64,000 bases of DNA from Clostridia bacterium. Lineage in GTDB: Bacteria; Bacillota; Clostridia; Oscillospirales; QAKW01. Positions 5,754 to 25,666 of the stretch are shown here, in pieces; within the stretch, counting starts at the first letter, position 1; every line of letters begins with the position of its first letter. The notes beneath the pieces are model-generated. The model made no database searches. It was given only the letters and a program-made list of their open reading frames with translations, and was not told the DNA's origin. Location: positions 1,931-65,930 of the forward strand of contig JAFUNM010000046.1 of assembly GCA_017482195.1 (NCBI GenBank). Direction: 5' to 3'. The position numbers and the translations under genes were made by a program.

Positions 5754-7391
5754 ATGATAACCGGTAAGCAGTATTGCGATATGATCATCTCCGGATGTAA
5801 TCATATCAGCAATCAAAAAGCAGCCATTAATGCATTGAATGTATTCCCGGTTCCCGACGGGGACACCGGCACCAATATGACGCTGACCATTTCCGCTGCC
5901 GCCCGTGAGCTGAAGGCGTTGGGCGACTGCACCGTTGCCGAGGCTTCCGACCGGGCAGCCGGCGCTATGCTGAAGGGTGCCAGAGGAAACAGCGGCGTTA
6001 TTCTTTCCCTATTGTTCCGCGGCATTTCCAAAGGCTTTAAGGAAAAGGAAAATGCCACCGCCCAGGACTTTGCCGTCGCCATGGCAGAGGGCGTAAAGGC
6101 CGCCTATCGGGCGGTCATGAAGCCCACCGAGGGTACTGTACTTACCGTATCCCGGGTAGCAAGCGAAAACCTGGCTAAATATGTTGAAAAAGGCAATGTC
6201 ACCTTTGAAGAGGCATTGACCTATTTTGTGGAACAGGCCAACGAAGTATTGGCCCAGACCCCTGAGATGCTGCCCCAGTTGAAGCAGGCAGGCGTCGTGG
6301 ACGCCGGCGGCAAAGGCTTCTGTGTGGTCATGGAAGGTGCTCTTTCTGCTTTAAAGGGTCAGCCCATCGAGCCTCAGGAGGAGCAGCAGGCCTTTAATAT
6401 CGACGATCCCATTGTCGATGAGATGGCCATGAGCGAAGAGGACATTAAGTTCACCTACTGTACCGAATATATTGTTACAGTAGACGAGACTGCCAAGAAG
6501 GATAATCCTGCCGAACTGCGTTCTTATCTGGAGTCTATCGGTGACAGCGTAGTTTGCGTACCGGACAATGACATTATCAAGGTTCATGTCCATACCAACC
6601 ATCCCGGCCGGGCCATTGAAGAGGCGCTGCGTTACGGTTCTTTGGTCAATTTGAAGATCGACAATATGAAGGAAGAGTTCCGCGAGCGGCAGAAGAATCA
6701 GCCCGCTGAACCCGCTTTCGCAGCACCCACTAAGAAATACGGTTTTGTATCGGTGGTAGCCGGTGAAGGCTTAGCTGCTCTTTATAAGGATTTAGGCGTG
6801 GATACGGTTGTGGAAGGCGGTCAGACCATGAACCCCTCCACCGAGGATATCCTCTCTGCAGTCAACAAAACCCCCGCCGAGATCGTTTTCGTATTACCCA
6901 ACAATAAGAACATTATCATGGCCGCCGAAGCTGCTAAAGAGCTCTCCAAGGAAAAACAGGTGGTGGTGATCCCCTCCAAGACCGTGCCCCAGGGCGTAAC
7001 TGCCATGCTGGGCTTTGATGAAAGCATGAGCCCCGAGGAGATCGAGGCCGCCATGACCGAGCAGCTTTCCATGGTGCAGACCGCCCAGGTCACCTATGCA
7101 GCAAGGGATTCCGTTTTCGATGATCATGAGATCAAAGAGGGTCAGCTGCTGGGTCTGATGGAGACCAAGGTCACCTTTGTAGAAGACAAAATGGAGGATG
7201 TGGTCCGTAAGCTCTTTGAGCAGATGGCAGAAAAGGGCGGAAGCTATGTTAATGTCTATTACGGCACCGACGTGACCGAAGAGGCCGCCAATGCCATTGC
7301 AGCGCAGATCCAGGAGCAGATGCCGGACGCTGAGGTCATCTGTCTTTATGGCGGGCAACCGGTTTATCACTATATATTTAGTGTAGAGTAA
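5754..7391 (+). CDS. DAK2 domain fusion protein (YloV-like)
   Basis: The N-terminal DhaL/DAK2 motif NVFPVPDGDTGTNM is present. The 545 aa length and the Asp23-YloV gene pair arrangement fit the family. Confidence 0.9.
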   Translation: MITGKQYCDMIISGCNHISNQKAAINALNVFPVPDGDTGTNMTLTISAAARELKALGDCTVAEASDRAAGAMLKGARGNSGVILSLLFRGISKGFKEKENATAQDFAVAMAEGVKAAYRAVMKPTEGTVLTVSRVASENLAKYVEKGNVTFEEALTYFVEQANEVLAQTPEMLPQLKQAGVVDAGGKGFCVVMEGALSALKGQPIEPQEEQQAFNIDDPIVDEMAMSEEDIKFTYCTEYIVTVDETAKKDNPAELRSYLESIGDSVVCVPDNDIIKVHVHTNHPGRAIEEALRYGSLVNLKIDNMKEEFRERQKNQPAEPAFAAPTKKYGFVSVVAGEGLAALYKDLGVDTVVEGGQTMNPSTEDILSAVNKTPAEIVFVLPNNKNIIMAAEAAKELSKEKQVVVIPSKTVPQGVTAMLGFDESMSPEEIEAAMTEQLSMVQTAQVTYAARDSVFDDHEIKEGQLLGLMETKVTFVEDKMEDVVRKLFEQMAEKGGSYVNVYYGTDVTEEAANAIAAQIQEQMPDAEVICLYGGQPVYHYIFSVE

Positions 7392-7428
7392 GCTCGATGA
7401 AAAGGGCGCAGATCCCTGAGAATAAGGA

Positions 7429-7487
7429 AAAGACCACCGAAAGGGCAGTCCTTCGCAAGGACTGCCCAATTCGGTGGTCTTTCTTTT
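7429..7487 (+). terminator. intrinsic terminator (nested hairpins)
   Basis: Outer stem AAAGACCACCGA/TCGGTGGTCTTT encloses inner stem GGGCAGTCCT-tcgc-AAGGACTGCCC. A T-rich tail follows. Confidence 0.75.
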
Positions 7488-7537
7488 ATGGCTTCACTGT
7501 TTCCTTTTTGAGCGATCTAAGCCAGTAAAGTATAATT

Positions 7538-7747
7538 TTATTTTAATTGATCTGTGATTCCTAATATATAATCGGCAGATACATTCCAATGCTCGCATAG
7601 CAATTTGATCCTGCTGGCCGGAATCTCATTTTTTGCGCGTTCATAATCACTGTAAGCCTGCTGGGTCGTACCCAATAACTCGGCGATCATCGCCTGGCTC
7701 TCCCCCTTTTTCTTCCGGATCTCTCGTATTCTTTCATGATATAGCAT
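7538..7747 (-). CDS. small XRE-family HTH regulator (cassette 1)
   Basis: This is a 69-aa single HTH_XRE domain, MLYHERIREIRKKKGESQAMIAELLGTTQQAYSDYERAKNEIP...NVSADYILG. The ATG at 7747 follows GGAGGTG; the ORF-track start at 7795 is unsupported. Confidence 0.85.
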   Translation of the reverse strand: MLYHERIREIRKKKGESQAMIAELLGTTQQAYSDYERAKNEIPASRIKLLCEHWNVSADYILGITDQLK

Positions 7748-7788
7748 GGTATCACCTCCGCCTTTCATTTTAAATAAAATTTTATGTA

Positions 7789-7841
7789 TTGACAAACACG
7801 AAATATCATGTATAATATAATTACACGAATTATCATGTATA
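7789..7841 (+). promoter_or_regulatory. sigma-A type promoter with two 19-nt direct repeats (candidate operators)
   Basis: TTGACA is at 7789-7794 and TATAAT at 7811-7816. ACACGAAATATCATGTATA (7796-7814) is repeated as ACACGAATTATCATGTATA (7823-7841). Confidence 0.6.
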
Positions 7842-7855
7842 GCGAGGAGGTTATT

Positions 7856-8125
7856 ATGATGAACACACTTAAAGAATTATGGCATGGCAATCTTCATCCA
7901 CAGGAGCAACGAAGAGAACAACGCCCGGAAATTCAAGAACTTCTTCAGCTGAGCGAGATCAACCGAAATCGCCTTTATGAAACACTCTCCGATCAGCAAA
8001 AAGAAACATTCGAAAAATATGTTGATTGCCTTGATGAACTTTCCTGCCTCACTGAATCAGAACTCTTTATCCAAGCCTTTCGATTGGGAGGAAAGATCAT
8101 GTTGGAAACATTGAGCAGCAATTAG
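7856..8125 (+). CDS. small alpha-helical partner protein of XRE cassette 1 (unknown function)
   Basis: The 89-aa ORF starts at ATG 7856 after GAGGAGG. Its sequence is MMNTLKELWHGNLHPQE...ELFIQAFRLGGKIMLETL. It is divergent from the XRE gene. It resembles a small Clostridia-restricted family (possibly DUF6809; from memory, unverified). Confidence 0.55.
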   Translation: MMNTLKELWHGNLHPQEQRREQRPEIQELLQLSEINRNRLYETLSDQQKETFEKYVDCLDELSCLTESELFIQAFRLGGKIMLETLSSN

Positions 8126-8133
8126 TTTCACTC

Positions 8134-8167
8134 AAAAAAGATCCCCGATTACTCGGGGATCTTTTTC
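8134..8167. terminator. bidirectional intrinsic terminator
   Basis: Hairpin AAGATCCCCG-attact-CGGGGATCTT is flanked by an A-run and a T-run. It lies between convergent genes. Confidence 0.75.
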
Positions 8168-8193
8168 CTTATTCTTGGCGGTCTGCGCCGTTT

Positions 8194-11100
8194 TCAGCGG
8201 TTTTCAACCTTTCTCTTTTTGAAGAACAGGAAGAGTAATCCGCCGGTGATCACAAACAATGCGATCAAAAGCCCCGGATTGCTGCCACCGCCGGTATAGG
8301 GGCTGGTGGGCTCATCCTCATTGGGAGTCGGCGTCGGAACAGGCTCGGGAACCGGCTCGGGAGTGGGTTCGGGAGTGGGTTCTGGAACGATAGGCGGTGT
8401 ATAGAGGTTATTGAACACCACCGTTGCATCTTTGCTGCCGTCCACAACGACTGCCGCATTCAGCACCCCGTTTGCATCGGTCACCTTAACCACCAGATCA
8501 TAGGTCTTAGTGTCATAGGTGATGGTGCTATCGGTGCCTGCCATTTCTTTCACGCGGTAGTGATACTCGCCCACCTGATCATAGACACGCTCGGAGAACA
8601 CAAAGGTATTGCCCACATTGGTCTTGCTCTCCAGCAAGGTCTCGGTTCCATTCTGATCCACAGAATAGAGTTCAAAGGTGAACTCCCCGTCCACCAGATC
8701 TCTTCCGGTCAGGTTCTTGGTACCGGAGATCGCCAGTTTAGCATCGTCGGGATCATAAGCATTCTTGAAGATGATCTTCGTCTCGGCGCTTCCGTTGACG
8801 GTGACCGAGGGAGTCAACACACCGTTTATATCGGTTACCACGATCTGCACCTGATAAACAGTCTCATCGTAGGTCACCTTTGCTGCGTCGCCCTTCTTCT
8901 CGATGATCTTATACTGATAGTTTTCTGCCTTATCAAAGATCATCTCACTGAAGGTAAAGGCGCTGCCCTTATTGGTAACAGCCTCTTTCAGGGTCTCGGC
9001 TCCGTCTTTCACAGAATAGAGCTCGAAGGTAAATTCCCCGTCTTTCAGGGCTCTGCCGGTCAGCAGTTTATTGCCGGAGAGGGTCACCTTGGCATCATCG
9101 GGATCATAGACATTCTTGAAGCCGACGGTGGTGGTTTCTTCCCCGTTGATGGTGGTTTCGGGGATCAGCACACCGTTTACATCAGTCACTACGATCTCCA
9201 CCTCATAAACGGTCTCATCATAAGCGACCTTTACTGCATCCCCCTTCTTCTCCACGATCTTATACCGATAGGTATCTGCCTGATCAAAGATCAGCTCGCT
9301 GAAAGTGAAAGTGCCGCTTGCATTGGTCTTGAATTCTTTCAGCGTTTCTGCTCCGTCTTTAGCTACGGAATAAAGTTCAAAGGTGAACTCGCCATCGGTC
9401 ATATCTCTTCCGGTGAGGGTCTTGGTACCCGAAAGGGTAACCTTAGCATCGGCGGGATCATAGATATTGGTGACCGTAATAGAGCCGTTCTTCACACCGT
9501 CTGCGGTAACCTCATAAACCAGAACATCTCTGCCGGTATGGTCGGTCACTTCTGTTACTTCCACCGTAACCACATAGGAATTGGTATCATAGGTGATGCC
9601 GTCCTTATGCTTATTGGTCGCGCTCACGCCCTCAGGCAGTTTTTCTTTGATCACAAAGTGGTAGGTGCCTGCCTTGCTGAAGGTCATATAGGTGGTCATG
9701 ACCTGCAGTCCGCTCAGTTCATCGGTGAGCAGCATCTCTTCAAACTTGAAGCTGCCATCGGCGGCGTTGGTTGCCTCCAGAAGAGGCTCACCCACCGCAA
9801 CGATCTCACCGTTTCTCTCCATTGCCTGATACAGTTCAAAGGTGAACTGCCCGTCGGTCAAAGTTTTATTATAAGACTTGGTTCCGCCCAGTTCCACTGC
9901 GACGGGTTCTTCCATCAGTTCATTGATAAAGTTGATCTCATCGCTGCCAACGGTAGAAGAGGCTCCATGCTCATCCACCTTGGTGACCTTCATATCGGTC
10001 TTCAGGCCGCCCTGCAGATCATCGGATACATCCACCTCAATGAAATAGACACTCTCATCATAGTTCATCAGCGGATCGGCATCAGCAGGGATCTGCTCGC
10101 GGATCACAAAGCGGTATGCACCGATGGCGCTGAAGTTCAGCTGTGCGATAGCGGAGGCGTTAAAGGCAAAGGTGCCGGTTCCGTCTTCCCTGGCTTCGGT
10201 GATCTTCGCCCCCTGTTCTACCGTCTTAGTATCAAGATCATACTCGGCGGCATACAGTTCATAAACGAATGCCTTTTCGCCCGTATACTTGGCGATAGCA
10301 TCGCCGATCAGCGTTTTGGTGCCGGTGAGATCCACCGAGGTGGGACTCACATGATAAGAGTTTTCAAAGGCGGGAGTGCCCTCGGGATACTGCACCTGAG
10401 CGTGGAGAGTACCGTCACCCTGATCGGTGACAACAACGGTCACATCATACTCATTCAGATCATAGGTCACACCGAATCTGGTGGGATTGGATGCATCCAC
10501 ACCGTCGGGTCGATGCTCTCTAACCGTATAATAATAAGTACCTACGGTATAGAATGTCAGCGGCTCAAAGGCAAATGCCGCATTGGCATCATCGGTAGGA
10601 ACACCGTTGCCCACGTTCCCGATCACCTGATCGTTTTGCAGCAACTCGAAATAGAAGGCATTTGCCTGCAGCTTACGGATGCCGCCGGTTAGATGCTTTG
10701 TGCCGCCGATCACCACATCGGTCACCGGATCCACCGTATAAAGGTTATCGAATACGATATCGGTCACATAGCCGTCCAGGGCGCTGACCCAGGAGGCGGT
10801 GAGGGTGCCGGTGGTATTATCGCCGGTCACGGTTACGGTCACGGTATATTTTCTGGTATCATAGGTGGTACCCAGATGCTTATTGTTTGCATCAATACCG
10901 GCGGGGAGTTTCTCCCGCACCACATACTGATAGGTTCCCGCCTGTTCAAAGGTCAGCGCGGTAAACTCCACTGCCGCGGTGGGATCATCGGCATTGGCGG
11001 GAGCTTTATTGCCCACCGTCTCTTTCCAGACCTCACCCTGAGGAGTGATCTCATAGAGTTCAAATTCAAAGAGATCCGCGGTCAGCTTCTTGCCGGTCAG

Positions 11101-11949
11101 GTTCTTGGTGGCGGTAATGGCGGGAGCCACTGCCGCTTCGGGGGTAAAGGTATTCTCAAAGGTGATCACACCGTCGGGGATCTCCGCTACCGTTACGGTA
11201 CCGGCGGAGCCGGTATAGGTATTGATGAAAGTAGCGGTTCCGTTTTCCAGCTTATAGACGGTAACGGTAATGGTATAGTTCCCGCTCTCGGTACCTACAT
11301 CTACTTTAATGCCATAGGCTTCCTCGCTGTAATCAATGCGGGAATCGGCAGACGCGGGAACCTTCTCCTCCAGTACATAATACTTGGTGCCCACCTGGGT
11401 TGCATCATTGAAGAGCAACGCAATATCGGTAGTACCGGCAGTGCTGGTGGCGGGAGCGTTTCCTGCCTCCTCACCCTTGGTCCATTGCCCATCGGCATGA
11501 TAGAGGGTAAATTCGAAGCCGGAGGGCGGAATCAAAGCGCCCTTATTTCCGGTCACGGTCTTCTTGATATTGATGACCGCTTCGGCTGCACCGTTTACCT
11601 CATAGCGGTTCTCAAAAGAGGCGTTTACCGTCCACTCGGTAACATCGCCGACGGTGGCGGTTGCCACCGTGGCATCGGTGCCCGCCGCCACATTGCTGAT
11701 ATAAAGCTGACCCTGCTCATTGTCGCTGACGATGACATCAAAGTAAGCGGGGGTGGCATCGTAGACATAACCGTTTGCCACATAGGAGTCATTCACGATC
11801 TCCACCACGCGGTAGGAGTAGGCGCCCGCCTCGGTAAAGATCTCATTCTGCAACGCGCTTACATCAAAAGCGAAGGTCTTCTGCCCCAACTCATTGGTAT
11901 AGGTAACGGCAGCGTTAGCAACGCCAAGATCCACATAGGTATTGGTGGT
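8194..11949 (-). CDS. giant surface adhesin, C-terminal fragment: pilin-isopeptide (Spy0128/FctA-type) domain repeats, Pro-rich stalk and sortase sorting signal
   Basis: About 11 repeats follow the pattern K.L.G....F.F.LY....Y.Y.(I/V).E....YD...Y.V.V.V.D....F.N.Y. The C-terminus is PEPTPEPTPEPVPEPVPTPTP, then SPYTG, a hydrophobic helix and KKRKVENR. The frame is open upstream to 11949. Confidence 0.85.
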   Translation of the reverse strand, partial: TTNTYVDLGVANAAVTYTNELGQKTFAFDVSALQNEIFTEAGAYSYRVVEIVNDSYVANGYVYDATPAYFDVIVSDNEQGQLYISNVAAGTDATVATATVGDVTEWTVNASFENRYEVNGAAEAVINIKKTVTGNKGALIPPSGFEFTLYHADGQWTKGEEAGNAPATSTAGTTDIALLFNDATQVGTKYYVLEEKVPASADSRIDYSEEAYGIKVDVGTESGNYTITVTVYKLENGTATFINTYTGSAGTVTVAEIPDGVITFENTFTPEAAVAPAITATKNLTGKKLTADLFEFELYEITPQGEVWKETVGNKAPANADDPTAAVEFTALTFEQAGTYQYVVREKLPAGIDANNKHLGTTYDTRKYTVTVTVTGDNTTGTLTASWVSALDGYVTDIVFDNLYTVDPVTDVVIGGTKHLTGGIRKLQANAFYFELLQNDQVIGNVGNGVPTDDANAAFAFEPLTFYTVGTYYYTVREHRPDGVDASNPTRFGVTYDLNEYDVTVVVTDQGDGTLHAQVQYPEGTPAFENSYHVSPTSVDLTGTKTLIGDAIAKYTGEKAFVYELYAAEYDLDTKTVEQGAKITEAREDGTGTFAFNASAIAQLNFSAIGAYRFVIREQIPADADPLMNYDESVYFIEVDVSDDLQGGLKTDMKVTKVDEHGASSTVGSDEINFINELMEEPVAVELGGTKSYNKTLTDGQFTFELYQAMERNGEIVAVGEPLLEATNAADGSFKFEEMLLTDELSGLQVMTTYMTFSKAGTYHFVIKEKLPEGVSATNKHKDGITYDTNSYVVTVEVTEVTDHTGRDVLVYEVTADGVKNGSITVTNIYDPADAKVTLSGTKTLTGRDMTDGEFTFELYSVAKDGAETLKEFKTNASGTFTFSELIFDQADTYRYKIVEKKGDAVKVAYDETVYEVEIVVTDVNGVLIPETTINGEETTTVGFKNVYDPDDAKVTLSGNKLLTGRALKDGEFTFELYSVKDGAETLKEAVTNKGSAFTFSEMIFDKAENYQYKIIEKKGDAAKVTYDETVYQVQIVVTDINGVLTPSVTVNGSAETKIIFKNAYDPDDAKLAISGTKNLTGRDLVDGEFTFELYSVDQNGTETLLESKTNVGNTFVFSERVYDQVGEYHYRVKEMAGTDSTITYDTKTYDLVVKVTDANGVLNAAVVVDGSKDATVVFNNLYTPPIVPEPTPEPTPEPVPEPVPTPTPNEDEPTSPYTGGGSNPGLLIALFVITGGLLFLFFKKRKVENR
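8401..9459 (-). repeat. three tandem 117-118-aa coding repeats (8401-8754, 8755-9105, 9106-9459)
   Basis: Each unit starts DP(A/D)DAK(V/L).(L/I)SG.K.LTGR and ends F(K/N)N.Y. These units are much more alike than the upstream domain copies. Confidence 0.9.
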
Positions 11950-14900
11950 TTATCCAGCTTTTGCAGTTTAAATTCGAAAGTACGGGCCGTGCTGTCTGCG
12001 GCGGTGCCCACCAAATTCTTGATGCCTTGGATCTTCACATTGGTAGGAGGTACGGTATCCTTGGCGTCATAGGTATTGGTAAAGCGAATGTAACGGGTCT
12101 CCCCGATTGCCGCGGTGGCATAGCCGGTTTGGGCGTTGGCGGTAAAGCCTACGGCGGTATAGTCCGCTTCGGTTGCCGTTACCGTCACGCCTGCAGGCAA
12201 ATCGGCAATATGCAGCACCTGCCCATGGGTCAGGGTAACGGTATTATTCTGACCTGCCAGCAGGGTATAGATCTGCCCGTCGGAACGGGTGGCGGTGATA
12301 TTCTCGGTGCCGGTATGGGTCACGGTGAATTCAAATTCCTTGGTCAGATGGCTGTTATGATCACTGACCACCGTCTTGCTGATCACGATATCTCCGTCTT
12401 GCGGCTTGGTGTTCACAAAATCGGCGGAATTGATAACGCCTGAGGTCACCGCAACGGTAGCAGTGATGGCGGCGGTATCGCCGTTGACGCTGTACACTTC
12501 ATAATCGGCGTCGGAAGGAATGACCTCGGCAACCGTAAAAGTCTTGCCGATCATGGCATTGCCGGTCACATAAGCAATCTCGCCGCTCTTGAGGGTGAGG
12601 GTCGCTTTGCCGGCGGTAAAGGCAAGGGCACCGACGCTGCGCTGACCTGCCGCATCCTCTTTGATGAGGACCAGGGTCTCTGCAAAAGCGGCATCGCTTG
12701 CAGTGATCTCAAAGGTATAGTCCAGAGTGCGATCCTCAATGGTAGAATCGGCGGTCTTGGTGATCTTGATGCCCTCATAGGGATCTACCAGCAATTTACC
12801 GTTGTTGCCAAGATAGGAGTCCACATGGTAGACGCCCTTGGTAACATTGACACCGGCGCTGGGATCATGAACGAAGGGACGGTCGGAATCGGGCAGGGTA
12901 TTGGTCCTGTTTTCCGTTTTCTCCATCACATAGTCGCCGTAGTAATGATAGATAGTACCGCGGGTAACGATCCAACTGCCGTCTGCCAGCCGCTCCATAT
13001 CGCCCGCATGCTCCATCACATGCTCGGAGACCTGCTCATAATGCCAGGTTGCAGTTACATTGCTGCCGCTTCCGCTATAAACTAAGAAACGGTGATAGAG
13101 GGGGTTATTCTCATCATAGACCGGGGCGGTGGCACCGGTATAAAGAGTGCCTGCCGTATCGGTATAGATCGGGGTGTCTGCGGTGTAATAATACCGTTCA
13201 TTCTCCAAGGAAGGCTCAAAGAAAGAGATGGTATTCTTATCGGTGCTGTACTGATAATCATAGTACGCATTCTCAGCTTGGTTATACTGCCACTGGTTGG
13301 TATAGAAAACATACTTTCCGTTTTCAGTCTGCAACTCATCCGGAGCCGTATTCTCAATATCCAACAGATCGATGGCATCGTCCAGACCCACCTCATAGAT
13401 CAGGCGGCTGGGGGCAGTGGCACCGGTGATGGTCAAGGTAGCGGGATCCATGGGATCCAGCTCTTTCAGATCAATATCATACTCCACCAGGGGGATCAGC
13501 GAAGCAGGCAGGCGCCCGATGACGCGGGTATCCCCCACCTTGCTGGCATCGATCTTGCCGGCGGCGGTCTCCTTCAGGGTGGTACGCACCTGAATGGTGG
13601 CGTACATCATATCCGTCTTACGGTGCGTGTCGTCATCGCCGATGGCATCATAATAGCCATAGGACTTAATGGCATAGACCGCGGTATCAGCCAATGCGGC
13701 GGGAACAGCGGCGGGGGAATCATCTTTACCGTCCCAGAAACCGATATACTTTCCGTTTCCGTCGGCATACCAGCCGATATAGTTGTTATACTCGCCGGTC
13801 TCGGGGTTGTAGTACAACTGACCGTTGGCATAGGCAAGTCCCAGCAGCTCACGGGCTTCCTGAACCGAATCGATCCCCAGACGCGCCTGCACCGACCACA
13901 CCAGGTTATTACCGACATCGGTAGGCTTCTCAACCGTTCCCATGCCGCCTTCATAGATCATTTTGGCAAGGGTACGGCCGGTATAGAGCTTTTCGCCCAG
14001 CTGGATGCCCTTCACATCCTTGACTTCCATATTTTCGCCGATATAGTCTTCAAACTCCAGGAAACCGTCTTCATTGATGCTGTTGCCGGTCTCCACCTGA
14101 GTGGGATAATAGAGCGACTGGATCACGATCTGCTGCACAATATCCTCAAAGGCTTGGATCAGTCCGGCGGCATTGGAGGCGGGGAAATATTCGGTCACAT
14201 AGTTCTCTGCCCAACCGTCGCTCAATACCGCATCGGTATAGGTGATGGTCTTGGTCTCAGGGTCGACCCATTCCGGCTCGTCATCATCGGGTCCGCCGCC
14301 CGGTCCGCCATAGTTGGGACCGCCGCCCTGCGTCCAATATCCATCGCGAATGGTAACGCTCATGGTCTTATCGGTTTCATCGGCAAGGGCAATATATTCG
14401 TTCCACATGGCATCAGTGGCAGTATTGCTTGAGGGATCCAATACGCTCCGGGCGGCATCGCTGTCATCTACCTTCAGACCCAGAGTATAGAAAAGCGGAT
14501 CGGTTCCGTATTTTTCTTCCATCTTATCGCGGACCCAGGATGCGGTCAGCTGGGTCATAAAGGCGATACCGGGGGTGGCATAAGTAGAAGAACCGTTACC
14601 GCTGTTTGCGGTATCCACCTCGGTATAGCTGGTGGTGGCGGTGGTGGGAGCACCGTCGGAAAGCAGGACCATTACAGGAACCCGCTCCACACCTGCCTGT
14701 ATACCCTCGGCAAGGGTGGTCTCGGCAACGGCCTCAAACTGCTCCCAGGCCTGATACAGACCGTTCTGAATATAGGTGCCGCCCTCAGCGCGCTTGCTGT
14801 TACTCTCGCTGAAGGTGCTTTCAATGTCATCGGCAACCGTGCCGGTCACGCCGGAATTCACCTTCACGCCGGTACGCCAATCACTGCCGCTTCTCCAGGA

Positions 14901-15524
14901 GGAGACCAGATAGGTATTGTTCACACCGGGGGTATAGCGACCCAACGGCAGGATCACCTCGGCGGTGCCGACGGTGGAAGCAGTCCCGGTGCTGTTGCTG
15001 CCGCTATAGGCGATGACACCCACCCGGTTATTGGCATTGAGATTTAAAAGCTTATCCAGAGCCGCATTGGCCGCCTGGACCGTTGCACTTACTGCCTGGT
15101 TGGTCTCCATGCTCGCAGAAAGATCCAGGACCAGAACCGTATCGGTGGGCAGGGTGGAATACCCCTCCACGCTCTTGCTGGAGGCGATGGCGGAGAGCGC
15201 CACTAAAAAGCTTTCCTCCTCCAGCTCTGCCAGATCGGCGAGCGCCTGATCGTTTTCATTCTCATCGGTGGCAGCAGTTAGATCGGCGACCGACGAAAAG
15301 ACCGATTTATCCGTCCAGACCATACCGGCGCTGGTGGTATCAATGGTCTCAGCCTCGGATCCGAAAAACAGTTTCCAATCGTTGACTGTTGCGGGATCGG
15401 TGACTGAGGTGTAATTGAGAGGCACTTCCTCAGACAACGCGGCAAAAGGAACGCTCATCACCAAAATGCACGCTGCCAAAAAGGCTGCCAGGATTCTCTT
15501 CGTTACATTCACTTTCTTTTTCAT
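11859..15524 (-). CDS. giant surface adhesin, N-terminal fragment: signal peptide, VWA domain and pilin-type domains
   Basis: The start MKKKVNVTKRILAAFLAACILVMSVPFAALSEE is a signal peptide (ATG 15524). VWA MIDAS DLSASM ... VLLSDGAPT is present. The last domain (RTFEFKLQKLDK) breaks off into an out-of-frame tail. Confidence 0.85.
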   Translation of the reverse strand: MKKKVNVTKRILAAFLAACILVMSVPFAALSEEVPLNYTSVTDPATVNDWKLFFGSEAETIDTTSAGMVWTDKSVFSSVADLTAATDENENDQALADLAELEEESFLVALSAIASSKSVEGYSTLPTDTVLVLDLSASMETNQAVSATVQAANAALDKLLNLNANNRVGVIAYSGSNSTGTASTVGTAEVILPLGRYTPGVNNTYLVSSWRSGSDWRTGVKVNSGVTGTVADDIESTFSESNSKRAEGGTYIQNGLYQAWEQFEAVAETTLAEGIQAGVERVPVMVLLSDGAPTTATTSYTEVDTANSGNGSSTYATPGIAFMTQLTASWVRDKMEEKYGTDPLFYTLGLKVDDSDAARSVLDPSSNTATDAMWNEYIALADETDKTMSVTIRDGYWTQGGGPNYGGPGGGPDDDEPEWVDPETKTITYTDAVLSDGWAENYVTEYFPASNAAGLIQAFEDIVQQIVIQSLYYPTQVETGNSINEDGFLEFEDYIGENMEVKDVKGIQLGEKLYTGRTLAKMIYEGGMGTVEKPTDVGNNLVWSVQARLGIDSVQEARELLGLAYANGQLYYNPETGEYNNYIGWYADGNGKYIGFWDGKDDSPAAVPAALADTAVYAIKSYGYYDAIGDDDTHRKTDMMYATIQVRTTLKETAAGKIDASKVGDTRVIGRLPASLIPLVEYDIDLKELDPMDPATLTITGATAPSRLIYEVGLDDAIDLLDIENTAPDELQTENGKYVFYTNQWQYNQAENAYYDYQYSTDKNTISFFEPSLENERYYYTADTPIYTDTAGTLYTGATAPVYDENNPLYHRFLVYSGSGSNVTATWHYEQVSEHVMEHAGDMERLADGSWIVTRGTIYHYYGDYVMEKTENRTNTLPDSDRPFVHDPSAGVNVTKGVYHVDSYLGNNGKLLVDPYEGIKITKTADSTIEDRTLDYTFEITASDAAFAETLVLIKEDAAGQRSVGALAFTAGKATLTLKSGEIAYVTGNAMIGKTFTVAEVIPSDADYEVYSVNGDTAAITATVAVTSGVINSADFVNTKPQDGDIVISKTVVSDHNSHLTKEFEFTVTHTGTENITATRSDGQIYTLLAGQNNTVTLTHGQVLHIADLPAGVTVTATEADYTAVGFTANAQTGYATAAIGETRYIRFTNTYDAKDTVPPTNVKIQGIKNLVGTAADSTARTFEFKLQKLDKPPIPMWILALLTLPLPIPMSWGRRPSLLM

Positions 15525-15560
15525 ATTCTTTTCCCTTTCATGGACCGTTAACAAAGGTTC

Positions 15561-15606
15561 TTTGGTACTATACAACAGTATAGTACCAAAAGAGGGATAT
15601 CCCTCT
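15561..15606. promoter_or_regulatory. two adjacent perfect palindromes between tetR and the adhesin start
   Basis: TTTGGTACTATAC-aaca-GTATAGTACCAAA spans 15561-15590. AGAGGGATATCCCTCT spans 15591-15606. On the minus strand the second is followed by TTTT, so it may be the tetR terminator. Confidence 0.5.
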
Positions 15607-15629
15607 GGCGTTTGCTCGATTCAAACCGA

Positions 15630-16355
15630 TCATTCGGTCTGTTTTTCATTGGCGTTCTTTGATCGTTTTTCAATCAGATCATCCAGCGCCTGCTCGTTGA
15701 CTTCTTCCACATATTCTTTAAAATCTTCCAAGATCCTTCGCCCGATGGAGCGGTAGTCCATCGCCAGGATCTTATCCACCTTCATGCTGCGGATTTCTTC
15801 GGGCACATTATAGATCATCATAATACTGTTGAGCGCGCCCGCGACCCGAACATCCAGGGGAGCAACATCCGATGTGGTCATCAGGGTGGCATATTCAATG
15901 CCGGAGACCAACACCTCCGCTTCCGCAAAATTTTGATTGGTCCAGCCGGCGCAGTATTCACCGAACACCGCTTTCGCCTTTTCCTCATCGGAACGGCGGA
16001 TGATATCCAGCGTCATCGGATGGGAGTAGGCTGAAATATAAAAATCTTTTGCGATCTCATTTTCCTCGCAGATGGCTGCGATCGTGGGCAGTTCCAAACA
16101 AAGTGCCAGCAAGGAACTGTTGCCCTCATCGGTCAACTGCTCCATCATCTTCCATTGGAACTCACCAAGCATCTCCACCAGCACCGCCAGCATATGCTCC
16201 TTGGTCGGAAAATAAAAGGTAAGATTCCCGGTACTGATATCCAACTCCTCACAAATGGACTTGGCGGTTGTATTGGAAAATCCATTCTCCAGGAACTTTT
16301 TCATCGCCACCTGGATGATCTCGATTTTCGTAGTATTTACCCGTCTTCGTGACAT
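15630..16355 (-). CDS. TetR/AcrR family transcriptional regulator
   Basis: The N-terminal TetR HTH is TKIEIIQVAMKKFLENGFSNTTAKSICEELDISTGNLTFYFPTKEHML. ATG 16355 follows GGAGGG. Confidence 0.85.
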   Translation of the reverse strand: MSRRRVNTTKIEIIQVAMKKFLENGFSNTTAKSICEELDISTGNLTFYFPTKEHMLAVLVEMLGEFQWKMMEQLTDEGNSSLLALCLELPTIAAICEENEIAKDFYISAYSHPMTLDIIRRSDEEKAKAVFGEYCAGWTNQNFAEAEVLVSGIEYATLMTTSDVAPLDVRVAGALNSIMMIYNVPEEIRSMKVDKILAMDYRSIGRRILEDFKEYVEEVNEQALDDLIEKRSKNANEKQTE

Positions 16356-16394
16356 GAATTCCCTCCGATTTTCAATCTTTTTAGGAAACGTCCT

Positions 16395-16440
16395 AATTAG
16401 CATCTATGCTAATTTTAGCACACATCCTAAAATATTGCAA
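16395..16440 (-). promoter_or_regulatory. tetR promoter with overlapping 9-2-9 palindrome (candidate autoregulatory operator)
   Basis: On the minus strand, TTGCAA (16435-16440), a 17-nt spacer and TAAAAT (16412-16417) form the promoter. Palindrome AATTAGCAT-ct-ATGCTAATT is at 16395-16414. Confidence 0.55.
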
Positions 16441-16464
16441 GTGTTTTTTCAAAAAAGGATAAAA

Positions 16465-16490
16465 AAGTTCCCGGATCCTTCCGGGAACTT
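16465..16490. terminator. bidirectional intrinsic terminator downstream of spo0A
   Basis: Hairpin AAGTTCCCGGA-tcct-TCCGGGAACTT has A-rich and T-rich flanks. Confidence 0.75.
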
Positions 16491-16509
16491 TCGTTTTTCT
16501 ACATTCCGC

Positions 16510-17289
16510 TCAGCAAACTAAGCGCCGGTCTAAGCGTACCCGCTCGGTTAACATGGAGATGAATTCTCCGTTGGTCGGCTTGCCTTTGGAGCTTTTGACC
16601 GTAAAGCCGAAGATGGAATTGAGGGTATCGATATCTCCACGGCTCCAAGCGACCTCAATGGCTTGGCGGATGGCGCGCTCTACCCGGGATGCCGTGGTAC
16701 GGTTATTTTTTGCAATGGTGGGATACAGCTCCTTGGTAATGGCTTTGAGCATATTGCGGTTCTCCAGGGAGAGCAGGATGCTGTCCCTTATGTAGTCGTA
16801 GCCACGGATATGGGCGGGAACCCCGACCTCATGCATCAGATCGGCCACATACCGTTCCAACTCAAAGCGGGCGGAATCCGGTTCCTCCTGTCCGGAGCGT
16901 TTTTGATCTAAGATCGCCCGAAAGCGGTCTTTTACAAACTGATAATCCAGCGGTGCCAAAAGGAAAAGATCACCGCCGGCATCCATCACATGCTGTGCCA
17001 GACGGTCATTGGGCACCGAGGATAATACCGCCAAAACGGTGTTTTTCCGATAGCCGATCTCCTTTAAGCACTTGATGATCTCATCGCTGCTTCTGCCGGG
17101 TAGGAAGCTATCCATCAGCACTACATCCGGCTGCAGCTCGGTGATCACCTTTACTGCCTCCGGCCCGCTGCCGCATACACCCAGCACGTCCATTCCCAAC
17201 TCTGTAAACCGATCCCGATTGACGCGGGCTGCCTCTTCATCGGTCTGCAGTAATACCAATGTCATTTTTTCAAAACTCTCTTTCTGCAT
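16510..17289 (-). CDS. spo0A: sporulation master regulator Spo0A (atypical receiver domain)
   Basis: The C-terminal Spo0A signature is present: HEVGVPAHIRGYDYIRDSI ... ITKELYPTIAKNNRTTASRVERAIRQAIEVAWSRGDIDTLNSIFGFTV..SKGKPTNGEFISML. There is an N-terminal receiver-like domain and a GGAGGA RBS. Confidence 0.9.
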   Translation of the reverse strand: MQKESFEKMTLVLLQTDEEAARVNRDRFTELGMDVLGVCGSGPEAVKVITELQPDVVLMDSFLPGRSSDEIIKCLKEIGYRKNTVLAVLSSVPNDRLAQHVMDAGGDLFLLAPLDYQFVKDRFRAILDQKRSGQEEPDSARFELERYVADLMHEVGVPAHIRGYDYIRDSILLSLENRNMLKAITKELYPTIAKNNRTTASRVERAIRQAIEVAWSRGDIDTLNSIFGFTVKSSKGKPTNGEFISMLTERVRLDRRLVC

Positions 17290-18550: not shown

Positions 18551-20134
18551 ATGAACATGAAAAAAGTTTTACCCAAGCTGCTGATCGTGCTGTTTGTGGT
18601 TGCCTTTGGTTTCCTTTGTGCATTCACCGGTGACATCACAGCGCCCAATGCGACCCTCTGGTCGCTCTATCCCCCGGTGATCGCCATCGGTCTGGCCCTC
18701 ATCACGAAAGAAGTTTATTCCTCATTGTTTGTGGGTATTCTGGCAGGCGGTCTGCTCTACACGCAGTTCACCCCCATCAAAACGGTGGATGCTCTTATCA
18801 ATGAAGGCCTGATTCCCGCTGTATCCGGCACGGCCGGCATCTTCATCTTTCTGGTACTGCTAGGTGTGATCGTAGCACTCCTCAATAAGGCAGGGGGGTC
18901 CAAGGCCTTCGGCGAATGGGCTGCGAAGCATGTAAAATCCAAGGTAGGAGCATCTCTTGCCACCTTCGCCTTCGGTGTGCTGATCTTTATTGATGACTAT
19001 TTTAACTGTCTGACGGTCGGTGCAGTTATGCGGCCGGTGACCGATCAGGCAAAAATATCCCGCTCTAAGTTGGCCTATTTGATCGACGCCACTGCAGCCC
19101 CGGTCAGCATGATCGCACCTATCTCTTCCTGGGCAGCCGCTGTGGCTTCCTATGCCGGCGAAGGTCAGGGAGGCATTGCCCTCTTCTGCCAGGCCATCCC
19201 CTATAACCTGTATTCTCTGATGACCTTTGTATTTATCATCGCCATCACCCTGATGAAATTCGATTACGGCCCCATGAGACTCCATGAGATGAACGCCGAG
19301 AAGGGCGATCTCTTCACCGGCGGTGAGATCGCTGCCAACGATGAGGATGAGCCCAGTACCGGCAAGGCAAAGGTCATTGACCTGATCCTGCCCATCCTGG
19401 CACTGATCGGCATCTGCGTTTACGCGCTCTACTATGTGGGTAAGACCGAAGCCGGCATGAACTTCATCGACGCGTTCTCCAACACCGATGCGACCGTCGG
19501 TCTGCCTTGGGGCGGCTTGATCGCTTTGGTAGCAGTAATGATCTATTTCATCGCCCGCCGACTTCTTACCTTTAAGGAAGCCATGGAATGCGTGCCCAAG
19601 GGCTTTATCGCTATGGTACCCGCCATTTTGATCCTGACCATGGCGACCTCTTTGAAGAACATGACCGGTCTTTTGGGTTCCGATGTATTTGTAGACAATG
19701 CATTATCCAATGCAGGCATGCTCAACCACTTCCTGCCCGCCATCATCTTCCTTTGCGCCTGCGGCATTTCCTTTGCCACCGGCACCTCTTGGGGTACCTT
19801 CGGAATCCTGATTCCCATTGTACTGACTGCCTTCGGTGTTGAAACCGAGATGGGCATTATCTGTATGTCCGCATGTCTGGCCGGCTCTGTCTGCGGAGAC
19901 CATTGCTCCCCCATTTCCGACACCACCATCATGTCCTCTGCCGGCGCACGCTGCGACCATATTAACCATGTATCCACCCAGCTGCCTTACGCCATGACCG
20001 TGGCCGGAATTTCTCTGGCCGGTTATCTCTTGGCCGGCTTTGTGCAGAATGTTTACATTGTATTAGCATTCTCCGCGGTACTGACCGTAGGCACTCTGTT
20101 TGTGATCAAAATGCTGAACAAAAAGAAAGTATAA
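18551..20134 (+). CDS. NhaC-family Na+/H+ antiporter-type transporter (probable lysine transporter, LysW-like)
   Basis: This is a polytopic NhaC-family protein. ATG 18551 follows AGGAGG. The ORF-track 72-codon N-terminal extension is the translated riboswitch. Confidence 0.85.
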   Translation: MNMKKVLPKLLIVLFVVAFGFLCAFTGDITAPNATLWSLYPPVIAIGLALITKEVYSSLFVGILAGGLLYTQFTPIKTVDALINEGLIPAVSGTAGIFIFLVLLGVIVALLNKAGGSKAFGEWAAKHVKSKVGASLATFAFGVLIFIDDYFNCLTVGAVMRPVTDQAKISRSKLAYLIDATAAPVSMIAPISSWAAAVASYAGEGQGGIALFCQAIPYNLYSLMTFVFIIAITLMKFDYGPMRLHEMNAEKGDLFTGGEIAANDEDEPSTGKAKVIDLILPILALIGICVYALYYVGKTEAGMNFIDAFSNTDATVGLPWGGLIALVAVMIYFIARRLLTFKEAMECVPKGFIAMVPAILILTMATSLKNMTGLLGSDVFVDNALSNAGMLNHFLPAIIFLCACGISFATGTSWGTFGILIPIVLTAFGVETEMGIICMSACLAGSVCGDHCSPISDTTIMSSAGARCDHINHVSTQLPYAMTVAGISLAGYLLAGFVQNVYIVLAFSAVLTVGTLFVIKMLNKKKV

Positions 20135-25070: not shown

Positions 25071-25099
25071 AGTGTTATCTATTCCTGAAGGAGATCAAT

Positions 25100-25186
25100 A
25101 TGAAAGCACAAAAAATCAGTGTCAGCCTATCATTTGATCCGGATATTTTACAGCAGGCAAAAGAACACGCCGCGAAAGAAGCATAA
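25100..25186 (+). pseudogene. truncated ribbon-helix-helix partner ORF (28 codons) of cassette 2
   Basis: MKAQKISVSLSFDPDILQQAKEHAAKEA-stop matches the first 27 residues of the 47-aa paralog at 25523-25666, then ends. A GGAG RBS is present. Confidence 0.5.
25124..25181 (+). repeat. 58-nt direct repeat, copy A
   Basis: AGCCTATCATTTGATCCGGATATTTTaCAGCAGGCAAAAGAACACGCCGCgAAAGAAG differs at 2 positions from copy B at 25547-25604. Confidence 0.9.
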
Positions 25187-25199
25187 ACTGGTAGTTTAA

Positions 25200-25412
25200 T
25201 TATTTTAATCGTTTTGGTTCATTCACTAAACCAAGAATATAATCTGCAGACACTTGAAAATGCTTTGCCAAAAGAACGATTTTTTGACCGTCCAGATCTG
25301 CTTTTCCCAACTCGATTTTACTGTAGTGCTGTTGGGTCGTTTTCATGATCTCTGCCATGTCCTTTTGCCGAAGGTCGTGATCCTCACGAATATCTTTGAT
25401 CCGATAATTCAT
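25200..25412 (-). CDS. small XRE-family HTH regulator (cassette 3)
   Basis: The 70-aa protein is MNYRIKDIREDHDLRQKDMAEIMKTTQQHYSKIELGKADL...QVSADYILG. ATG 25412 follows AAAGGAGGAA. Confidence 0.85.
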   Translation of the reverse strand: MNYRIKDIREDHDLRQKDMAEIMKTTQQHYSKIELGKADLDGQKIVLLAKHFQVSADYILGLVNEPKRLK

Positions 25413-25443
25413 ATATATTCCTCCTTTATGTAATGAGTATATC

Positions 25444-25490
25444 ATACATCTAAAAAGTGTATTGACAAATACATCTATCAGGTGTATCAT
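25444..25490 (+). promoter_or_regulatory. sigma-A type promoter flanked by a 9-nt direct repeat
   Basis: ATACATCTA occurs at 25444-25452 and at 25469-25477. TTGACA is at 25462-25467, followed by a 17-nt spacer and TATCAT at 25485-25490. Confidence 0.5.
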
Positions 25491-25522
25491 TAGACTATGT
25501 TAATATGAATAAGGAGGACTTT

Positions 25523-25666
25523 ATGAAAGAGCGAAAGGTCAGCATCAGCCTATCATTTGATCCGGATATTTTGCAGCAGGCAAAAGAACACGCCGCAAAA
25601 GAAGAACGAACCCTTTCCCGCTATGTCAATTGGGTGTTGCGGCAGCATTTTCGCAAAAAAGAATAG
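25523..25666 (+). CDS. small ribbon-helix-helix-like partner protein of cassette 3
   Basis: The 47-aa protein is MKERKVSISLSFDPDILQQAKEHAAKEERTLSRYVNWVLRQHFRKKE, with a beta-strand then two helices. An AAGGAGG RBS is present. The ORF is too short for the ORF track. Confidence 0.65.
   Translation: MKERKVSISLSFDPDILQQAKEHAAKEERTLSRYVNWVLRQHFRKKE
25547..25604 (+). repeat. 58-nt direct repeat, copy B
   Basis: See copy A at 25124-25181. The two copies flank the cassette-3 XRE gene and promoter. Confidence 0.9.

Follow-up and report, generated by a model that had tools for sequence, protein, structure and literature searches.

Two long open reading frames (ORFs) on the minus strand of contig JAFUNM010000046.1, from the Clostridia bacterium assembly GCA_017482195.1, pose a question of gene identity: do they encode two proteins, or are they the halves of one large adhesin-like gene that has lost its reading frame and, if so, was the frame lost in the organism or in its assembly? 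We analyzed a 64,000-nucleotide stretch of this contig, referred to here as the window, to which all positions below refer. A preliminary description of the window had noted that the two ORFs, at 11859-15575 and 8194-11934, overlap in different frames, that the upstream one ends in mid-domain, and that a single-base frameshift within a repeat domain might explain the arrangement; these coordinates and frames were reproduced here, with an overlap of 76 nt. The ORFs at 11859-15524 and 8194-11934 form one gene. This disrupted gene occupies positions 8194-15524 of the minus strand and measures 7331 nt in the window, as compared to 7332 nt (2443 codons and a stop) in an intact allele carried by conspecific assemblies.

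The halves are annotated separately in the NCBI record of this metagenome-assembled genome (MAG), both as hypothetical proteins on a contig of 124,013 bp, as revealed by an exact-sequence cluster look-up. The upstream half, IJ407_03905 (MBQ8600507.1; 11859-15524, minus strand), is 1221 residues long and consists of 1192 native residues followed by 29 out-of-frame residues; the downstream half, IJ407_03900 (MBQ8600506.1; 8194-11934, minus strand), is 1246 residues long and is annotated to start at a GTG codon at 11934. Read through, the upstream frame proceeds as ...RTFEFKLQKLDK (...STARTFEFKLQKLDK) and then enters the 29-residue tail PPIPMW...SLLM (PPIPMWILALLTLPLPIPMSWGRRPSLLM), a low-complexity nonsense sequence that terminates at the stop codon at 11859-11861. 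The downstream frame lies at −1 relative to the upstream frame; it opens after a TAA formed by gaTAAa, reads TTNTYVDLGVANAAVTYTNELGQKTFAFDV... (TTNTYVDLGVANAAVTYTNELGQKTFAFDVSALQNEIFTEAGAYSYRVVEI...), and continues up to a sorting signal and the stop codon at 8194. Addition of a single A after the AAA at 11949-11951 (minus strand) joins the two frames into an ORF of 2443 codons that runs without interruption from an ATG at 15524, so that the continuity foreseen upon correction holds. Across the repaired junction, the Pfam FctA profile matches end to end (profile positions 2-120 of 120, in a 180-residue segment centered on the junction). A hidden Markov model (HMM) built from the repeats of the protein itself places the junction, between residues 1192 and 1193, 27 residues into the first FctA domain; the break separates the putative isopeptide-forming lysine K1169 on the upstream side from the glutamate E1242 and the asparagine N1306 on the downstream side.

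The preliminary description gave the upstream ORF as 11859-15575; the ATG at 15524 (MKKKVNV...), which is preceded by the Shine-Dalgarno-like stretch GGGAAAAG, is a likelier start than the TTG at 15575. The downstream half has neither a signal peptide nor a convincing ribosome-binding site, and no ATG occurs among its first 180 codons, which makes its independent expression implausible. No terminator-like site was detected between the two halves.

The intact allele was reached by exact look-up of the neighboring Spo0A protein, which led to a 140,669 bp scaffold in the ENA record ERZ28654221 (XIEF21-1_SAMN15829984_METAG-scaffold_290, hereafter scaffold_290). The gene called at this locus (L001:11766-19097) encodes exactly 2443 residues, with 0 differences from our in silico repair. 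When scaffold_290 was reconstructed from four stitched pieces and compared with the window, 64,001 of its bases aligned to the full 64,000 of the window; 7 mismatches and a single gap, corresponding to the extra A, separate the two sequences. A second, independent assembly, the 6238 bp Logan contig SRR12529333_62910, is identical to window positions 6818-13054 except for the same extra A. The proposed fusion of the halves by one additional A in the run at 11949-11951 is thereby borne out: both conspecific assemblies read GATAAAACC, with AAAA at the lesion (GCTGGATAAAACCACC) in place of the AAA of the window (GCTGGATAAACCACC), and one of them encodes the 2443-residue ORF predicted by the repair. 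The three-base allele, A3, was seen once, in one MAG consensus; of the other assemblies, just two extend across the site, and both carry AAAA. When JGI metagenome contigs were scanned for exact matches to the junction, with either A3 or the four-base form, A4, none was found, and a scan of the GTDB representative genomes returned no conspecific genome, only two relatives at 62-63% identity.

A homolog search recovered at least 824 proteins (E ≤ 1e-20), of which the best are single polypeptides of 2100-4100 residues; the closest are 64-65% identical to the repaired protein, and those that are named derive from Clostridia or Oscillospiraceae MAGs. This first search missed the identical 2443-residue protein, though it was present in the collection. 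The homologs are colinear with the repaired protein and gapless across the junction, with homolog P0001 reading FEFQLQRYDAATQGYVDV where the repaired protein has FEFKLQKLDKTTNTYVDL, and no homolog is split at this site. Two related Eubacteriales bacterium MAGs, JAZQFD01 and JAZQET01, are 62-63% identical over the head and junction regions and preserve the gene order LexA-like protein, Spo0A, TetR, adhesin and FakA; in one of them the adhesin is one ORF of 2195 codons, and in the other the open stretch spans 2308 codons. The preliminary description had named separate conservation of the two ORFs, each with its own start, as the outcome that would speak against a single gene; the orthologs at 62-65% identity and hundreds of more distant homologs are instead single ORFs. 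With intact conspecifics and single-ORF relatives, the split is private to this assembly, a single gene being the ancestral, selected state. The family is uncharacterized, its members being annotated at most as "VWA domain-containing protein."

Does the missing base reflect a mutation in the organism? We favor, with some confidence, a real deletion that arose very recently, giving a null or truncation allele within the ruminant-gut population sampled. The extra A is the only indel in 64 kb relative to scaffold_290, and it falls in a run of three or four bases, while none of the 354 homopolymers of at least five bases (100 of at least six, 18 of at least seven) differs in length between the two sequences. 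A systematic homopolymer sequencing error was ruled out by this concordance of the 354 longer runs. Misassembly by repeat collapse was likewise ruled out: the locus is non-repetitive at the DNA level, and no copy resembling the 200-nt segment around the junction occurs elsewhere in the window. Illumina chemistry seldom generates indels in such short runs, and a one-nucleotide deletion in the consensus of a de Bruijn assembler needs several concordant reads.

Several observations weigh against a biological deletion. The A3 allele derives from a single MAG consensus. The two halves are otherwise 100% identical in protein sequence to the intact allele, and this lack of decay is equally expected of an artifact. 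Contigs of SRR12529333 carry the haplotype of the window, being identical over 9516 bp including the single nucleotide polymorphism (SNP) at 15537, the only SNP discriminating the window from scaffold_290 that these contigs cover, yet they read AAAA. If this run contributed to the MAG, then either both alleles coexist or one assembler erred. Lastly, all three SNPs seen within the downstream half in another sample are synonymous, a weak indication of purifying selection on the full-length gene in the population.

The principal alternative is that the missing A is an artifact of consensus building, assembly or binning and that the organism possesses the intact 2443-residue gene. We regard this explanation as the less likely of the two, with perhaps half the standing of a real deletion. 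It is favored by the AAAA of both other assemblies, by the base identity of the SRR12529333 contigs over 9.5 kb and by the lack of any further difference in 7.3 kb of coding sequence. Metagenome assemblies typically carry about one indel per 100 kb relative to references. The origin of the MAG is also relevant: judging from the sample tags of the matching assemblies (XIEF21-1, SAMN158299xx), the IJ407 MAG probably comes from the ruminant gastrointestinal study of Xie et al. 2021, in which PCR-free Illumina NovaSeq 2x150 reads were assembled with MEGAHIT and IDBA-UD, and both single-sample assemblies and co-assemblies were binned (PMC8199421). Possible sources of such an artifact would be a minor or erroneous k-mer path, a chimera in a co-assembly, or pre-correction by IDBA-UD. 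What holds this explanation below that of a real deletion is the setting of the lesion, namely the sole indel in 64 kb, in a short run within non-repetitive DNA.

A stronger version of the biological explanation would have A3 segregate with the intact allele in ruminant-gut populations, on genomes that are otherwise identical, as a variant that has lost anchoring and is favored under some conditions, for example by escape from phage or antibody aimed at the displayed adhesin, or by use of the soluble VWA head as a decoy. A conserved core-genome adhesin would then be functionally polymorphic, on or off, with no classical repeat tract involved. We consider this improbable.

Less probable still is a regulated switch, in which slippage between A3 and A4 toggles display of the adhesin in the population. 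Surface adhesins are classic targets of phase variation, and both alleles do exist on nearly identical backgrounds. However, contingency tracts usually comprise at least seven bases and the tract here has only three or four; the homopolymer is not conserved in homologs, the aligned site of P0001 reading ...QRYDAATQGY...; and the OFF allele was seen only once. The preliminary description had left three options standing, a recent inactivating mutation, a sequencing error and an on/off variant. The first two survive, graded as above, and classical on/off phase variation is not supported. Its remark that so short a run fits neither classical slipped-strand phase variation nor a canonical slippery heptamer was well founded: the intact allele has only A4, and the sequence at the site is G GAT AAA C.

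A programmed −1 ribosomal frameshift, or slippage during transcription, could in principle generate the full-length protein from the A3 allele; the downstream frame does lie at −1, and the 87-nt overlap would permit the shift at the cost of few aberrant residues. The overlap, G GAT AAA C included, is free of any X XXY YYZ heptamer, RNA polymerase slippage would need a longer run of A, and the conspecific and orthologous genes are in frame, so there is no conserved frameshift signal. We give recoding of this kind almost no credence. Equally negligible is the notion of two true and separately functional genes, one for a secreted VWA protein and one for an FctA-repeat protein, as the source record annotates them: the break interrupts a domain and parts the isopeptide lysine from its glutamate and asparagine partners, the final 29 residues of the upstream product are out of frame, the downstream ORF is without an ATG start, a signal peptide or a good ribosome-binding site, no homolog is so divided, and the intact conspecific allele refutes it. 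The frameshift is an ordinary null allele or an assembly slip, and invokes no new mechanism.

The conspecific sequences also revealed variation elsewhere in the window. The SNP at 15537 lies 13 nt upstream of the adhesin ATG, beside GGGAAAAG; the window and the contigs L003, L004 and L005 read GAAAGGG, and scaffold_290 reads GACAGGG. A SNP at 19106 in a Na+/H+ antiporter gene (18551-20134, plus strand) is nonsynonymous, with Ser186 in the window and Cys186 in scaffold_290; the antiporter allele of the window is absent from the protein collection, and exact look-ups of this allele and of the 1221-residue upstream product in the contig index returned nothing. In L004 (ENA ERZ28019339, k141_1142618), the TetR protein is identical, while the DNA is only 93.9% identical to window positions 15512-17067, and this divergence indicates a second, more divergent lineage of the species group in another sample. 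We also considered whether an enrichment of differences at the adhesin locus might be a sign of selection; two of eight differences fall in or beside the 11.5% of the window that the locus occupies, which is not significant (rough Poisson estimate, P ~0.2).

What, then, does the intact gene encode? We scanned the repaired 2443-residue protein against Pfam and used an HMM iterated from its own repeats to set the FctA boundaries. A signal peptide, a VWA domain with a metal-ion-dependent adhesion site (MIDAS), a stalk of isopeptide-type domains and a sorting signal, all anticipated for the fused product, were recognized. The protein begins with a Sec-type signal peptide, MKKKVNVTKRILAAFLAACILVMSVPFAALS (15432-15524, minus strand), read from the sequence, in which MKKKVNVTKR leads into a hydrophobic core of 20 residues and then AALS|EE; in the structural model, residues 4-23 form a helix.

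The signal peptide precedes a putative adhesive head of residues ~32-919 (12768-15431, minus strand), a VWA domain with large insertions delineated by Pfam, alignment, AlphaFold2 modeling and Foldseek searches. The Pfam VWA_2 match, to residues 129-176, scores 27.7 bits against a cut-off of 27 and covers profile positions 1-48 only. The head contains the MIDAS motif DLSAS (15111-15125, minus strand); in an alignment of 40 homologs, T250 and D290 are invariant, and D134, S136 and S138 are kept in at least 90%. The head is strongly conserved within the family. An AlphaFold2 model from the 40-sequence alignment attained a mean predicted local distance difference test score (pLDDT) of 83 and a predicted template modeling score (pTM) of 0.73. 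A phmmer search returned no PDB sequence match for the ~920-residue N-terminal head. Foldseek matched the model to structures of the pilus tip adhesins PitA (E = 1e-10), SpaC (9e-8), RrgA (4e-7) and GBS104 (1e-6), followed by integrin beta-I, VWF A3 and CMG2 domains, in keeping with the Rossmann-like alpha/beta fold of a VWA domain. Global template modeling scores against the tip adhesins are low (0.15-0.29), so the resemblance lies in the domain folds and not in their overall arrangement.

Following the head are two DUF7601 (PF24547) CnaB-like stalk domains, identified by Pfam and the repeat HMM at residues ~920-1152 (12069-12767, minus strand); DUF7601 is listed as a predicted isopeptide domain (PMC12617251). 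The remainder of the stalk comprises nine FctA domains, likewise defined by Pfam and HMM: the first, which contains the frameshift, at residues 1166-1308 (11602-12029, minus strand) and the other eight at residues 1319-2376 (8398-11571, minus strand). The repeat HMM sets their boundaries at 1166-1293, 1319-1461, 1471-1597, 1607-1725, 1734-1859, 1880-2023, 2032-2141, 2150-2258 and 2267-2376, and the Pfam FctA profile (PF12892) scores 412.5 bits over nine stretches, with an overall E-value of 3e-125. The FctA domains contain the putative isopeptide motifs G(T/I)K-x-L, Y-x-(V/I)-x-E and F-x-N-x-Y; triad positions for FctA and DUF7601 were taken as in PMC12617251. The last three FctA domains are repeats ~73-75% identical in DNA; the sole repeats at the DNA level, of this identity, lie at 8616-9468. 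The stalk of isopeptide-type domains described earlier is therefore present, with 11 such domains (nine FctA and two DUF7601) in place of the "12 or more" that had been counted.

The C-terminus carries the elements of a sorting signal (8194-8304, minus strand) in the order SPYTGG, the hydrophobic segment GLLIALFVITGGLLFLFF and the basic tail KKRKVENR, followed by the stop codon. The Pfam Gram_pos_anchor match, at 19.2 bits, falls just below the 20-bit cut-off. The motif is SPYTG (8290-8304) rather than LPXTG, and conforms to a family consensus of xPxTG(D), the aspartate usually coming next among 120 homologs (P0001-P0120). In these homologs, we counted 31 SPxTG motifs, 18 NPxTG, 17 VPxTG, 15 TPxTG, 9 PPxTG, 6 APxTG, 2 IPxTG and 1 LPxTG. 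The variation in these motifs suggests a sortase of relaxed or different first-position specificity in these uncultured Clostridia. Altogether, we infer that the product is a Sec-exported, sortase-anchored fibrillar adhesin, with a VWA head presumably serving adhesion on a covalently stabilized stalk. Counting against this interpretation, no sortase is encoded in the 64-kb window, in which no plausible ORF with a TLxTC-type motif was found, and anchoring is predicted from the sorting signal alone.

How would the A3 allele affect such a protein? The single-base deletion from A4 to A3 at 11949-11951 would break the gene 27 residues into the first FctA domain. Translation from the ATG at 15524 would yield a secreted product of 1221 residues, comprising the head, both DUF7601 domains, a stump of the first FctA domain unable to fold, and the 29 nonsense residues. 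Devoid of the nine FctA stalk domains and the wall anchor, the head would be released instead of being displayed. The 1246 codons downstream would be transcribed and would be neither productively translated nor exported.

The best structural matches to the predicted head, PitA of S. oralis (7w6b), SpaC of L. rhamnosus GG (6m48), RrgA of S. pneumoniae (2ww8) and GBS104 of S. agalactiae (3txa), invite a comparison with VWA pilus tip adhesins. These proteins and the predicted adhesin have in common a VWA/MIDAS fold with inserted arms, flanking Ig-like isopeptide domains, a signal peptide and a C-terminal sortase signal, while the sequence identity between the tip adhesins and the predicted head is only 9-13%. 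Tip pilins are ~800-900 residues long and sit on a polymerized shaft built by an adjacent class C sortase, whereas the adhesin described here carries 11 tandem stalk domains in cis. No gene for a class C sortase or a backbone pilin is present in the 64-kb window, and we have therefore not classified the adhesin as a pilin. By this analogy, the protein would work like a tip adhesin on a built-in stalk, as a fibrillar adhesin and not a pilus subunit.

The stalk has its own counterparts. Nine domains match FctA, the T-antigen major pilin of Streptococcus pyogenes typified by Spy0128, with K...E...N at the triad positions (PMC12617251), and a direct search of PDB sequences returned weak matches to T3.2 (6bbw) and FctB3. 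Pilins of the Spy0128 type possess two domains per subunit and are polymerized between molecules; here, nine domains are joined in one chain, with isopeptide bonds predicted. The layout of an N-terminal adhesive domain, a repeated stalk and a wall anchor, and the presumed mechanics, are the same as those of fibrillar or periscope-type stalk proteins, in which a rigid, covalently cross-linked stalk projects the binding head from the wall (PMC12617251, PMC9704523). The combination of a VWA head of ~890 residues with two DUF7601 and nine FctA domains is uncharacterized and occurs in proteins of uncultured Clostridia/Oscillospiraceae MAGs.

Substrates of the Clostridioides difficile sortase SrtB, such as CD2831, carry (S/P)PXTG signals; the SPYTG motif found here is similarly distinct from LPXTG, while the domain content differs. 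With regard to the lesion, large surface-protein genes that appear in draft genomes and MAGs as frameshift pseudogenes or split ORFs present the same situation, a single-base indel dividing a long ORF into two annotated hypothetical proteins, and nothing distinguishes the present case from them.

In practical terms, IJ407_03905 and IJ407_03900 are to be read as one frameshifted gene, for which scaffold_290 provides the intact 2443-residue sequence. The locus further points to a large, conserved and uncharacterized adhesin family, whose members join a tip-pilin-type VWA head to an 11-domain stalk in cis, carry xPxTG signals other than LPXTG and are syntenic with spo0A and TetR genes, and which could matter for the attachment of gut Clostridia to host or feed surfaces. 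If real, the deletion would be a further case in which point mutation eliminates an adhesin within a natural population.

Within the window, the adhesin gene is neighbored by genes for TetR, Spo0A, LexA-like, DUF6809, HTH and FakA proteins. Directly upstream lies the TetR-family regulator gene (15630-16355, minus strand), which is syntenic in related species. Downstream of the TetR gene and 36 nt upstream of the adhesin ATG is a perfect palindrome with 14-bp arms, TTTTGGTACTATAC-TGTT-GTATAGTACCAAAG (15560-15591, minus strand). It might represent a TetR operator controlling the adhesin, or a terminator; either assignment is a guess from the sequence. The palindrome is not conserved in the same form in the related loci L009 or L010, though the TetR-adhesin synteny is. 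A second palindrome, AGAGGGATATCCCTCT followed by TTTT, precedes the first and resembles a terminator of the TetR gene. At the other end of the adhesin gene, beyond its stop codon, a hairpin flanked by an A-run and a T-run (8135-8166) lies between the convergent adhesin and DUF6809 genes; the sole good hairpin there, it is likely a bidirectional terminator.

On the plus strand, three ORFs run antisense to the adhesin gene: 8560-10692 (710 aa), 10693-12072 (459 aa) and 13092-14432 (446 aa). They are probably by-products of the biased, repetitive coding sequence, rich in Thr, Val, Gly, Asp and Glu, and not genes; no gene is called opposite the adhesin on the conspecific scaffold.

Further into the window, two 83 bp copies at 25099-25181 and 25522-25604, ~89% identical and ~420 bp apart, lie in the region of two small genes of the HTH_3/HTH_19 type, which encode 70 and 69 aa on the scaffold; small Xre-type regulators may have been duplicated locally in this segment (25099-25604). 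A third, similar HTH gene of 69 aa lies beside the DUF6809 gene, near 7550-7760. The DUF6809 protein (89 aa; 7856-8125, plus strand), directly downstream of the adhesin, is accompanied by this divergently encoded Xre/MqsA-like HTH protein (69 aa; ~7538-7760, minus strand), and the pair may constitute a small toxin-antitoxin-like or regulatory module. The intergenic region holds a perfect sigma-70-like promoter at 7789-7816, with TTGACA and TATAAT separated by a 16-nt spacer.

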